A stretch of DNA of 14,078 nt from Promethearchaeota archaeon (GTDB lineage Archaea; Asgardarchaeota; Lokiarchaeia; Sigyniarchaeales; SOKP01): positions 1-14,078 of the forward strand of contig JAHLWH010000182.1 in assembly GCA_019058015.1 (NCBI GenBank). Reading direction: 5' to 3'. Positions 6,350 through 9,804 of the stretch are shown in pieces; the first letter of the stretch is position 1; every line of letters begins with the position of its first letter. The notes under the pieces were generated by a model that was not told the DNA's origin, ran no database searches, and saw only the letters and a list, made by a program, of their open reading frames with translations. Both the position numbers and the translations under genes were made by a program.

Positions 6350-6568
6350 AGGTTTTCACCAAATTTTTTTTTAGATAATAAAAAATATTGAAAATCAATA
6401 GTAATATTATTTTCATTTCATTATAATATTAATGTCAATTTAATTGATTACCTACTAATAATCAAATGAAAAGTATATTGATATTTTTTGAATTTTTAAA
6501 AATTATAGTAATAGAATTTTAAATGATAATCATGTTCAATATATGTTATCGGATATTAGACGAAGATT

Positions 6569-6574
6569 GGAGGT
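6569..6574 (+). promoter_or_regulatory. Shine-Dalgarno-like ribosome binding site for the ICMT gene
   Basis: GGAGGT lies 5 nt upstream of the in-frame ATG at 6580, which suggests 6580 rather than 6523 is the true start. Confidence 0.55.
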
Positions 6575-6579
6575 TAAAA

Positions 6580-7140
6580 ATGATCAATTATCCTTTGATT
6601 TGGATTATATTTCCAATTATATTAACTGTCATTCTTATTAGTTCGTGGCTATTAGCGAGAATGAATAATTTGGAAAACAAGGTTTTGCGAACTGGATTCA
6701 TAACAGCAGGTGCCATTATCGGATTCATTGCGTTTATTTTACCTTTTTTTGAACAACTGAGTTTTCAAGATATAATTTTAAATTTTGTTATTGGATTACT
6801 CTTAACAGTGTTTGGTTTGATCGCACGTGTGTATCCAATGATTTATCTCCGGAGGAAAGGCACTACTACAGCATTGAGCAAGGTGACAGAAATAATCGAC
6901 ACTGGGCCTTTTAGAATAATTAGACATCCTCAATATACAGGAGGAATCCTCTTAATAATTGGATGGTATCTTATCTGGGGATCAATTTTTTGTCTGTGTT
7001 TAGTTCCATTAATTGCTTTATTGACTGTAATAAAAGCATTAATTGAAGAAAAGTATATTTTAGAATAAAAATTTGGCAATACATATAGTGAATACAGAAA
7101 GAGAGTAGGTATGTTTATTCCGAAAAGAAGAAAACAATAG
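6580..7140 (+). pseudogene. Isoprenylcysteine carboxyl methyltransferase (ICMT/PEMT) family protein with a premature in-frame TAA
   Basis: Motif IIDTGPFRIIRHPQYTG. After EEKYILE the TAA at 7066-7068 is followed in frame by KFGNTYSEYRKRVGMFIPKRRKQ* (TAG 7138-7140), which completes the conserved EE..L...FG..Y..Y...V..FIP tail. Confidence 0.85.
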
Positions 7141-7293
7141 GAATTAAATTATTTCCAATTTAAAAGCACCTATTCTTTTCATAAATTTAATTTTGAATTA
7201 ATCTAATCTCAAAAAATGAAAATATATTTTATATTGTTGCCTAAAATTAATGAAATCCTCATAGATTAGAATTAATAGGATAAAAAGAAAACC

Positions 7294-7421
7294 GAAGGAA
7301 TTCGGTATCTCTTTAAATTAAGTATAAGGAGGAGATCCCGTGCAATGATTTCACGAGAAGAGGGCGAAATCCAATGTTTTAAAGTTGCGGGAAAAACCCG
7401 CGAAAGATATTAAATTCCTTC
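7294..7421 (+). ncRNA. Candidate structured non-coding RNA or cis-element (three-way junction), family unknown
   Basis: Pairings read by eye: P1 7294-7310/7405-7421 (17 positions, 1 mismatch, 2 G-U); P2 CTTTAAA 7311-7317/TTTAAAG 7378-7384; P3 TTGCGGG-AAAAA-CCCGCGA 7385-7403; inner hairpin TCCCGTG 7336-7342/CACGAGA 7352-7358. Locally GC-enriched. The G-U pairs favour the + strand. Confidence 0.45.
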
Positions 7422-7464
7422 AATATGAGATTATTTTTTAGAATAATAAAAGTTAATAGATCAT

Positions 7465-7496
7465 ATTATTGTTCGTATCAATCGTAAGACAATAAT
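7465..7496. terminator. Inverted repeat, possible terminator hairpin between convergent transcription units
   Basis: ATTATTGT (7465-7472) and ACAATAAT (7489-7496) form a perfect 8-bp inverted repeat 25 nt downstream of the N6-MTase stop. It is AT-rich, so support is weak. Confidence 0.3.
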
Positions 7497-7521
7497 TTTA
7501 CAATAAAATTTCATTGCTTAA

Positions 7522-9804
7522 TTAATTTAAATTCTCATTAATTGCGTCTGATTTATGAAACATCTTATTTATGAGATTATCTGTTTTGTCAAATAAGGGT
7601 TTTAGAATTTGATGTAATTGTTTTTGAATTTCCCATTTCGAAATCGAATTATTCACATTAGAGGTAAATTTTTTGCAAACTTCTTTTGATTTAAGAGTAG
7701 CAATTTTTCCGATTTCGCTTAGATTTTTATGAATTTTATTATTTTCATTGTATTTTTCTATTGAAAACTCTAATGCTTTTTTGAAAATATGGCGTGAGCT
7801 TTTTCTAATTTTGATTTGCTCGGAAAATATTGGAGAATTTAAAATTGCTGTTAAGTAATAAGCTTCATTAATATTAGTTGTATCAAGAAAGCTCAAATCG
7901 CCTGTAATAATATAGTCCCCAGTAATAACTGCTGCGTTTAACATTGAACCTGAATTGTTATACACTACTTTAATATCTGAGAATTGCCTTTTATTTAGCA
8001 ATTTACCCCATCGATTTAAGTTTTCCATTAAGGATTTATGTTTAGTAGTATTTTTTTTATATTTCAAATATTTTTCATTCATTAACTTGTAAAATGATGA
8101 ACCATATTTTGATAAAGACCCTGGGTTCCATGTTAAATTATTTTTCTCAATGGGTAAGAAAACGCTATAGGTATGAAAGATATTAAATTTTACCAATTCA
8201 GTACTTTTTGCACATTTAAAGATATATTTTTTTTCAATAATTTGATTTTGGTATTCTATCTTATTCCAAGGAGATTTTGCTTTTTTGAGAATTCTTTTAT
8301 CCACGTTAATAAGAGCCAATGTATTGGATTTCTTTTTGAACTTTATGAATATAAGATTTCGGGGGTTTAAATCGGCTCCTTTATGAAATAAGTCAAAATA
8401 ATGAGATTTGGCATATGGATACATTTTATTTTTAATTTCTTTTGAAATGAGTTTTTTCACATAAAATTTTCTGCTTTTTTCGACAACTGTATAAGGTACA
8501 TAGATATCTTCCTTCATTTTCACAATTTTAAAACTAGTATTTGATTTTTTAAAATCAAAATGTTCGACGGGTATTTCTCTTTGCTCAAGTTCTTCCCTAC
8601 TTTTATTGTTATTTAGTTTATCTTTAATTGCAAATAAACAAATAAAATCTACATTAAAGATTTTTTTAGTAAATTTCCAGATTTTAATACTTTTAAACCC
8701 ACGGAATGTTCTAAATCGGTCATTATGACTTCCTGTAATAATTCCGGATGTTATTACAAAAAATATTTTACCCTTATTTTTCAAGTAGAGATTACTGCAT
8801 TGATAAAAGAAGATAGCAGATAAATCTAAATTCAGAATATTCTTAGGGGATGGTTTGATTTGTAAATTTTCAACTAGAACCTTTAATTTATTTTGATCTT
8901 CTAAAGATTCTAACGAGCTATATGTTAGCCAAGGTGGATTTCCGATTGTTAAATCGAATTTATTTTTAATATTTTCCCCTGAAAATAGCGAGTCACGTAA
9001 TTCTATATTTATTTTACAATTTGGAATTAAATCTCTGATTAATAAAAACATATTTATTTTGGAGATAAATACTGCAAATGGATTCAAATCGTATCCATAA
9101 ATATTATTAATTGCTGAAATTTGATTCTTTAAGGGGGTATCTTTTGATGTAATATGTTTAATTAGCTCAATAATGAAAGTACCAGAACCACAAGCTGGAT
9201 CTAATACCTTTTCCCCAAAATCATAGGATTTGATAATCATTTTTCTGGCAAGAAAAGAAGGAGTGTAGAACTCTCCTATTAAATGCCTTAAAGAAGCAGA
9301 AACCAATTCTTGATAAATATTATGGAATAAATCCTCTCTGAGAATTTTAATCTTGAGAATTGAATTATAAATAAAATGGAGATTTAAGACCAATTGCTTT
9401 ATCATATCATTTATTTCTTTTGGGTTATTTTCTACATTTGAAAATATCCAATTGCCAAAATTCCGTTCAAAATCACTGAAATCGTTAGAAAAATTATTCA
9501 ATAAACCAAAAATATTTTTTAAATCAATAAGTTCAAATTCAATTTTGCTCAAAACAACTCGGATTAAAATTATTTTTATTAATAAGGTTAAATAAGTGTG
9601 TGTAAGAAATAATTCTTTATTACAGTTCTTCTCACTATAAATTTTGATGAATATATTTTTCCATTCATTAAATTCTTCATTGTTTTGAAGATTATATAAT
9701 CCAAATAGAGAATCTAAGATTTGGTATGTATTTTTAAAAATATCTGAATGTGTTCCAAATAAATGAGCGATTAATTCTCCAGAGAGAGCTCCTATTTCAA
9801 TCAA
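7522..9804 (-). CDS. N6-adenine DNA methyltransferase (gamma class, Type IIG/Eco57I-like MTase plus C-terminal target recognition domain), no recognisable nuclease domain
   Basis: Motif X IGEFYTP, motif I VLDPACGSGTF, motif II IYGYDLNP, motif IV IGNPPW, and C-terminal TRD-like EAYYLTAILNS. TTG start. Confidence 0.9.
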   Translation of the reverse strand: MIEIGALSGELIAHLFGTHSDIFKNTYQILDSLFGLYNLQNNEEFNEWKNIFIKIYSEKNCNKELFLTHTYLTLLIKIILIRVVLSKIEFELIDLKNIFGLLNNFSNDFSDFERNFGNWIFSNVENNPKEINDMIKQLVLNLHFIYNSILKIKILREDLFHNIYQELVSASLRHLIGEFYTPSFLARKMIIKSYDFGEKVLDPACGSGTFIIELIKHITSKDTPLKNQISAINNIYGYDLNPFAVFISKINMFLLIRDLIPNCKINIELRDSLFSGENIKNKFDLTIGNPPWLTYSSLESLEDQNKLKVLVENLQIKPSPKNILNLDLSAIFFYQCSNLYLKNKGKIFFVITSGIITGSHNDRFRTFRGFKSIKIWKFTKKIFNVDFICLFAIKDKLNNNKSREELEQREIPVEHFDFKKSNTSFKIVKMKEDIYVPYTVVEKSRKFYVKKLISKEIKNKMYPYAKSHYFDLFHKGADLNPRNLIFIKFKKKSNTLALINVDKRILKKAKSPWNKIEYQNQIIEKKYIFKCAKSTELVKFNIFHTYSVFLPIEKNNLTWNPGSLSKYGSSFYKLMNEKYLKYKKNTTKHKSLMENLNRWGKLLNKRQFSDIKVVYNNSGSMLNAAVITGDYIITGDLSFLDTTNINEAYYLTAILNSPIFSEQIKIRKSSRHIFKKALEFSIEKYNENNKIHKNLSEIGKIATLKSKEVCKKFTSNVNNSISKWEIQKQLHQILKPLFDKTDNLINKMFHKSDAINENLN

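Follow-up and report, generated by a model that had tools for sequence, protein, structure and literature searches.

A candidate family of conserved structured RNAs outside Rfam in one family of Promethearchaeota

An element of about 130 nt, found in a 14,078-nt stretch of Promethearchaeota DNA (the window), very probably belongs to a real, conserved and structured RNA family that lies outside Rfam. The RNA family is new, and its general kind, a small structured RNA with a gene of its own, is a familiar one. The reading that we favour as a whole, and hold with moderate confidence, is that of a stand-alone, constitutively folded RNA of ~130 nt, transcribed from the minus strand, acting in trans and representing an undescribed family within one family of these archaea (f1). 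Asgard archaea are the closest known prokaryotic relatives of eukaryotes, and the case is a clean one, with an invariant core, many compensatory changes, a recognizable gene architecture and a sharp family boundary.

The element and its conserved structure

The element lies in the gap between two ORFs that converge on it. An initial annotation of this DNA had proposed a novel structured RNA in such a gap and was right about the convergent arrangement, but the size of 380 nt that it gave does not hold: the gap measures 453 nt (7069–7521). The GC enrichment that it described is readily seen, with a value of 0.40 at 7300–7399 against 0.17–0.24 in the flanks. The folding energy of the segment, which the annotation had proposed to compare with dinucleotide shuffles, is better than chance on both strands, with z-scores of −3.94 on the plus strand and −4.58 on the minus strand, and none of 200 shuffles was as good on either strand. 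Each of the nested helices that had been proposed can be read in the window sequence, and according to the shuffles they are not a product of chance. The longest of them was recovered independently as an inverted repeat, in which arms of 17 nt (7294–7310 and 7405–7421, read on the plus strand) form the 14 Watson–Crick pairs, two G-T (G-U) pairs and one mismatch originally counted, the mismatch being C-A. The TCCCGTG/CACGAGA hairpin (7336–7342/7352–7358) is present as well, although the earlier description had passed over its internal C-A mismatch on the plus strand, which turns into a G-U pair on the minus strand.

Copies at the same site are found in three of the four other species of the genus, namely G001 (99% identity), G002 (94%) and G004, which carries an insertion. 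The features of the locus are given below in window coordinates, with the minus strand entered as the probable strand of the RNA (see below) and R2 denoting the broader of two covariance models.

6523–7068, plus strand: ORF for a PEMT/ICMT-type methyltransferase, the left flank
7278–7293, minus strand: T/C-rich tail after P1, a candidate oligo-T terminator, seen as an A-rich left flank on the plus strand
7292–7423, minus strand (inferred): body of the putative RNA gene, ~130 nt, a full-length match to R2
7294–7302 with 7413–7421, minus strand: arms of the closing stem P1, part of the inverted repeat, with a two-sided change in G002 and double changes in 7 of 7 pairs family-wide
7306–7310 with 7405–7409, minus strand: arms of P1b, kept in G001, G002 and G004, with covarying P1b pairs at the family level
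7311–7317 with 7378–7384, minus strand: arms of P2, with an equivalent pair in most copies and double changes in 10 of 10 pairs
7336–7358, minus strand: hairpin P3 (arms 7336–7342/7352–7358, 7 positions), with double changes in 9 of 9 pairs and 95% of cells paired family-wide
7360–7378, minus strand: invariant 19-nt core, comprising the junction strands and the tiny P4, seen as invariant alignment columns
7362–7372, minus strand: mini-hairpin P4 inside the core, 3 bp on the plus strand and 2 bp plus a mismatch on the minus strand
7387–7401, minus strand: extra hairpin GCGGG-A5-CCCGC in the bulge between P2 and P1b, genus-specific
7444–7451, minus strand: TATA-like box, ~20–22 nt upstream of the start of P1 on this strand
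7465–7496, strand unset: palindromic upstream element, ~45–75 nt upstream of the RNA on the minus strand, with 100% complementary arms (7465–7472/7489–7496)
7522–9804, minus strand: ORF for an N6-adenine DNA methylase of the Eco57I/MmeI type, the right flank

The pairings shared across copies are P1, P1b after a one-sided bulge, P2 at 2–9 nt past the core, and P3 just before the core. An alignment made with MAFFT only and passed to RNAalifold missed these helices and returned only a 5-bp core-to-tail pairing without covariation, and the MAFFT alignment was replaced by a covariance-model alignment. Among its 88 distinct rows, 90.2% of cells are paired, compared with 71.2% after column shuffles and 34–49% when the partners are slid by 1–3 columns, and the covariation score is 0.453 versus 0.161 for the shuffled and at most 0.092 for the slid controls. 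Two-sided changes occur in all 30 pairs (451 cells), counts that overstate the number of independent events because the rows were aligned to the model itself and come from related copies. The homologues and the covariation that the annotation had named as checks on its proposal were thus both found across f1.

In an alignment-free comparison we also took the longest Watson–Crick helix that can form between fixed zones. For P2 the mean was 6.59 bp, against 4.64 bp in shuffled zones and 4.99 bp when zones of different copies were cross-paired. For P1 the corresponding values of 6.74, 6.22 and 6.67 do not separate the stem from its controls, because its arms are of low complexity and alike in most copies. 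The case for P1 as a predicted helix rests on clear individual compensations, such as that in G002, where the stem is preserved via a change on both sides.

Sequence divergence with retained pairing recurs elsewhere in the element. In the genus of the window the sequence of P3 is unrelated to that of P3 in other genera, and the helix is nonetheless kept. The extra hairpin at 7387–7401 is missing from other genera; in G004 this region has a wholly different sequence and can still form a hairpin. The same copy carries a 32-nt insertion within the loop of P4, in the middle of the core, and the insertion forms a hairpin when folded by eye. P4 itself is without covariation because its columns never vary. 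The second arm of P2 begins within the last bases of the invariant core.

Distribution and known RNA classes

The first covariance model, R1, was built from ten clean copies and gave 102 matches in 100 loci, and R2 was built from 102 homologues. In the window R2 matches 7292–7423 over its full model length with 43.8 bits (E 2.2e-7), well ahead of the 17.1 bits of the second-ranking match there, and across this genome the window copy is its sole match. R1 had missed this copy at an E of 0.01 with default filters. The window copy is a divergent member of the RNA family, with an unrelated P3 sequence and one extra hairpin.

In the genomes covered by the search, the RNA occurs in f1 alone, a family of the Lokiarchaeia type. 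R2 matches 90 of 101 f1 genomes with 1–9 copies each, some in tandem pairs, and brings over 200 copies within reach. The 19-nt core, allowing up to two mismatches, occurs in 90 of 121 genomes of the family and in 13 of its 13 genera, against one match overall for a reversed-pattern control, and the stretch at 7360–7378 is found identical at many sites in other genera of f1. In three other families of the order R2 matched 0 of 14, 0 of 1 and 0 of 4 genomes, searched with stricter filters and many of them incomplete. The best score in three complete sister-family genomes was 29.9 bits, in apparent coding sequence and unconvincing as a homologue. Scanning 185,579 species genomes for an exact 18-mer returned at least 120 stretches, and among the 80 listed, 73 are archaeal MAGs, mostly Promethearchaeota/Promethearchaeia, and the remaining seven are high-GC or unrelated bacterial matches that lack the flanking helices. 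Three 18-mer matches under Hod-, Hermod- or Odinarchaeota names come from genomes of f1. No match to the core was found in viral contigs. The element is also present on DNA contigs from other studies, and among the differences listed for them few fall within 7292–7423. RNA runs covering window 6500–8100 were sought and none was listed, and one metatranscriptome run, from a study whose DNA data include the region, yielded no contig, a result that bears on expression in neither direction.

Some copies lie beside the same gene in different genera, such as queC or a metallo-beta-lactamase-fold gene, and in general neighbouring genes vary between copies. Paralogues in one genome differ in their helix sequences.

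At gathering thresholds, the 4227 models of Rfam 15 gave no match in the window and none in seven homologous loci, and at E values of up to 1 they gave none in five typical copies. Around the window copy the best Rfam score was 18.6 bits against a threshold of 39, far sub-threshold noise. ARAGORN found no tRNA or tmRNA gene in the whole window. The segment is therefore absent from Rfam, and the novelty that had been claimed for it stands. Literature searches on Asgard and Loki RNAs brought up no RNA family specific to Asgard archaea and no description of this RNA, and a search on permuted 5S rRNA likewise brought up none of this RNA.

An identity with 5S rRNA was considered because the 5S model RF00001 scores above its cut-off nowhere in five f1 genomes, although 5S-like loci exist there. 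The element resembles 5S rRNA in its length (~120–130 nt), its ends paired as a closing stem, its apparent promoter of its own, its T-rich end and its multiple copies. It differs in that its junction is not at the closing stem and the loop C signature is absent. RF00001 has no match at 7050–7560 at E values of up to 10, and the same genome has, elsewhere, a 5S-like locus that does carry the loop C signature (G000:C243:19558–19679). The 5S identity was accordingly rejected.

Guide RNAs are recognized by conserved C and D boxes, or by an ACA box that follows the closing stem on its 3′ side. Inspection of the family alignments by eye revealed neither kind of box on either strand, and this candidate was rejected too. 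Archaeal C/D and H/ACA guide RNAs are similarly small and have several paralogues per genome, but the variable parts of the present RNA are helices rather than single-stranded guides, and no ACA follows its closing stem. A closer general likeness is with orphan structured ncRNA motifs (Rfam Gene; sRNA), which also combine an invariant core with covarying helices, a lineage-restricted range and multiple copies. The present motif differs from them in coming from Asgard archaea and in matching no Rfam 15 model.

Transcribed strand and gene signals

The RNA is probably transcribed from the minus strand. Read on the plus strand, the helix cells of the alignment hold 122 A-C or C-A combinations and 64 G-U or U-G combinations, and in P2 and P3 alone the numbers are 69 and 16. 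This excess of A-C favours the minus strand, where the A-C cells become G-U. The consensus structure has an energy of −19.0 kcal/mol on the minus strand and −15.2 kcal/mol on the plus strand, and in 69 of 88 copies the minus value is the lower one. The minus strand has the lower minimum free energy (MFE) in 57 copies, the plus strand in 30. Four copies folded alone gave z-scores of −3.94, −3.91, −4.80 and −3.94 on the minus strand and of −2.21, −2.41, −3.99 and −1.09 on the plus strand, and the minus-strand MFE structures of singly folded copies reproduce the consensus helices.

Of 84 copies, 62 have a TATA-like hexamer that starts 20–29 nt to the right, while the other bins on the right hold 4–24 of 84. 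To the left, no 10-nt bin has such a hexamer in more than 21 of 84 copies, and the bin at 21–30 nt has it in 13. The fixed spacing on the right is what a promoter of a minus-strand transcript starting at P1 would need, and a TATA-like box at a fixed distance upstream of the 5′ end is a mark of an independently transcribed archaeal sRNA gene. Only on the right do the neighbouring genes leave consistent space for a promoter: 38 of 39 loci have no ORF closer than 74 nt on that side, whereas the left ORF is closer than 60 nt in 7 of 37, down to overlap (distances taken from crude ORF calls of at least 90 codons). Further out on the right, 52 of 82 copies have a 22-nt semi-palindromic motif at +45 to +54, and the motif is nearly invariant in four species of the genus. 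In the window the palindromic element at 7465–7496 is a possible transcription-factor site upstream of the TATA-like box.

In the 12 nt just left of the element A makes up 65% on the plus strand, corresponding to T on the minus strand, and in the 12 nt on the right T makes up 44%. Minus-strand T-runs of at least five occur within the element in 49 of 85 copies and in the tail in 40 of 85, and since internal runs are as frequent as those in the tail, the argument from a terminator is blurred. As a strand reference we profiled the promoters of tRNA genes, of which ARAGORN found 16 in the genome, and the profile has no sharp peak.

The same conserved RNA could instead be read from the plus strand, with a promoter that is weak or variable, or be derived from the 3′ UTR of an upstream plus-strand gene, which we consider unlikely. 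On that strand the purine-rich junction strands, the A-rich linker and the GAAA-type loop are typical of folded RNAs, and the letters of the GAAA-type loop recur at the tip of the G004 insertion. P4 pairs better there, with its 3 bp, and P1 of the window contains two G-T pairs that become A-C on the minus strand. In 6 of 37 loci, moreover, a plus-strand ORF ends no more than 50 nt to the left of the element, making co-transcription conceivable. Against this stand the predominance of A-C over G-U cells (122 to 64), the worse energies and z-scores, and the position of both the TATA-like box and the space that is always free on the right, while a TATA-like signal at a set distance is missing from the left (13 of 84 in the 21–30 nt bin). 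The annotation had assumed the plus strand, and most of the indirect evidence points to the other one.

Function and alternative readings

In the minus-strand reading that we prefer, the two ends of the RNA would pair in a long, interrupted closing stem made of P1, P1b and P2, and this stem would hold a junction with P3, the tiny P4 and the invariant 19-nt core. The gene's own TATA-like box ~22 nt before P1 would drive minus-strand transcription, with the palindromic element ~20 nt further upstream, and transcription would stop in the T-rich tail directly past P1. Neither strand of the window places the RNA upstream of a co-directional gene. Together with the variable neighbours, the lack of a co-directional gene downstream argues for a stand-alone RNA acting in trans. 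That it does act in trans, whether as a regulator or as the RNA component of a ribonucleoprotein, is a proposal to which we assign roughly even chances. Closed by its paired ends, such an RNA would offer its invariant junction, along with P3, to a conserved partner. Since the hairpin insertion of G004 splits the 19-nt core, a continuous antisense duplex is unlikely, and the junction more likely docks a protein or a tertiary contact that reads both flanks than an uninterrupted antisense target. Read as the minus strand, the junction has pyrimidine-rich strands and is joined to P2 by a U-rich linker, features that would suit Sm-like proteins or purine-rich (Shine–Dalgarno-like) RNA partners.

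A more specific version of this idea, which by analogy we can entertain only as improbable, is that an Asgard-specific ribonucleoprotein has this RNA at its core, with an architecture like that of a eukaryotic Sm-class snRNA. The single-stranded U-rich tract between two helices on the minus strand would then bind archaeal Sm-like proteins, and the gene would be driven by a TATA-like box and a conserved proximal upstream element, as in snRNA genes. We presume that a U-rich single-stranded tract between helices is what the element has in common with Sm-class snRNAs and Lsm/SmAP-bound RNAs, and that a TATA-like box with a conserved element further upstream is what the genes have in common. The length and sequence of the U-tract vary between copies, however, and no similarity to any Rfam snRNA model was found, so that the comparison is an analogy only. 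If true, it would make the RNA a candidate for kinship with the eukaryotic snRNP world, or else a convergent counterpart of it, within the archaeal lineage nearest to eukaryotes.

Whatever its partner, the RNA provides a covariance model target for annotating Promethearchaeota genomes, a concrete RNA to seek in sediment metatranscriptomes and enrichment cultures, and a bait for its protein partner. Should that partner be an Sm-like protein or another RNA-binding protein of eukaryotic type, the RNA would be relevant to how eukaryotic RNPs arose, and otherwise it is still a well-supported new orphan RNA class.

The annotation's proposal of an undescribed ncRNA survives these comparisons, whereas its suggestion of a riboregulator with switch-like behaviour does not. 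A cis-acting riboswitch or attenuator would toggle between two alternative pairings that do exist in the window sequence, and the GAGGG of the core is able to pair with the 3′ arm of P1. Both alternatives are lost in sister species: the competing hairpin at 7291–7306 is broken in G002, where P1 is kept, and the pairing of 7336–7342 with 7386–7392 is gone in G004, whose hairpin there has a different sequence. Three copies do lie upstream of queC on the plus strand, but the neighbours of the copies are otherwise unrelated, the convergent ORFs of the window leave a 5′ leader on neither strand, and no Rfam riboswitch matched. As far as the sequences tell, the structure is constitutive, with no switch, and a riboswitch is highly improbable. 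An undescribed self-cleaving ribozyme, which we regard as very unlikely, could likewise combine an invariant core with freely covarying helices and occur in 1–9 dispersed copies per genome, some in tandem. Yet the copies bear a positioned promoter-like signal of their own, they are not associated with repeats or retroelements, no cleavage site is marked, and the Rfam ribozyme families are without a match.

The annotation had also raised the folded end or remnant of a non-autonomous mobile element, to which a structure acting at the DNA level, such as a cruciform or a single-strand origin, may be added. The terminal inverted arms of P1, the several copies in some genomes and the restriction-modification-type methylase adjoining the element in the window would all fit such an origin. 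This genome, however, holds one copy, where many near-identical ones at variable sites would be expected of a MITE; neighbours are kept across genera, no transposase is consistently near, viral contigs gave no match, and the helices of copies within one genome differ in sequence, unlike the products of recent transposition. The mobile-element reading thus fares poorly, and we put its probability, with that of the DNA-level structures, at close to nil. The tie to the adjoining DNA methyltransferase dissolves in the same comparison, as the neighbours of other copies are unrelated to it. Least probable of all, to a degree that makes it negligible, is a 22-residue peptide encoded by an ORF at 7345–7413 behind a strong Shine–Dalgarno-like AAGGAGG, both of which are present in the window. 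The 32-nt insertion of G004 falls inside this ORF and is not a multiple of three, and at a locus of another genus (L013) the same frame, read by eye, has a stop and lacks a start. The changes within the helices are compensatory rather than synonymous.

Possible alternative pairing and variation around the core

The folded small RNA (window 7292-7423, minus strand inferred) includes the P3 hairpin (7336-7358) and the 19-nt core (7360-7378). In the window's genus, where P3 has a replaced sequence, most of its loop (7343-7352) can base-pair with the invariant core at 7366-7376, giving about 6 base pairs and a further 4 flanking a bulge and a mismatch, and in the minimum-energy fold of the minus strand this loop/core pairing forms in place of P3. 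The complementarity may represent an alternative fold specific to the window's genus, or it may have arisen by chance.

Within the otherwise invariant core, one locus from another species of the window's genus (L011, G004:C12) carries a 32-nt insertion at 7368/7369, and the insertion is present in this one species of the genus. When folded by eye, the inserted stretch would form a hairpin, whose apical loop has letters identical to those of the loop that it interrupts. In a marine-sediment run, a single DNA contig passes directly from 7368 to 7410 and so lacks 41 nt of the RNA; this contig probably comes from a relative whose element differs in its 3′ half.

A 22-codon ORF lying over the RNA on the plus strand (7345-7413), with AAGGAGG upstream at a 10-nt spacing, was considered and set aside; it is not conserved among the homologues.

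Tandem copies and surroundings of the RNA gene

In several genera the RNA occurs as tandem pairs of copies, ∼300 nt apart.

Tandem pairs of RNA copies (G, genome; C, contig; L, extracted locus)
G007:C80:32548-32967, tandem pair
G019:C12:48510-48923, tandem pair
G026:C168 (L028:1023-1436), tandem pair
L040 and L063, tandem pairs

Since the upstream copy in the G007, G019 and G026 pairs carries a core variant with two letters changed, these three are conserved paralogue pairs. For three loci (L066, L074 and L094) the public records are titled Odinarchaeota or Hodarchaeota; because their contig coordinates are those of genomes classified in f1, the window's own family of Promethearchaeota, titles and classification disagree.

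A 22-nt semi-palindromic motif lies at window 7465-7496 and at the equivalent position in 52 of the 82 other copies, at a fixed spacing from both the RNA and the TATA-like box (7444-7451), and it is a candidate binding site for a transcription factor. The product of the neighboring gene (7522-9804, minus strand) is 760 residues long, contains N6_Mtase, Eco57I and MmeI-methylase domains, and is probably a single-chain restriction-modification enzyme.

Order of parts in the 5S rRNA gene of f1

In the source genome a 5S rRNA gene lies on C243 at 19558-19770 (L197:1501-1715, minus strand), and L194, L196, L198 and L199 hold further genes of this kind. Judged from sequence, the gene looks circularly permuted in f1: the 3′ two-thirds, which begins at the 3′ side of loop C and includes the 3′ end, is immediately upstream of the 5′ part, helix I is the join between the two, and the whole unit is bordered by short complementary ends. 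Permutation is on record for organelle 5S and archaeal 23S, and a literature search on permuted 5S rRNA yielded no permuted archaeal 5S gene. Against RF00001, the Rfam 5S rRNA model, five f1 genomes score 25-29 bits (cut-off 38), whereas the sister family, of the same order, scores 54-67 bits.
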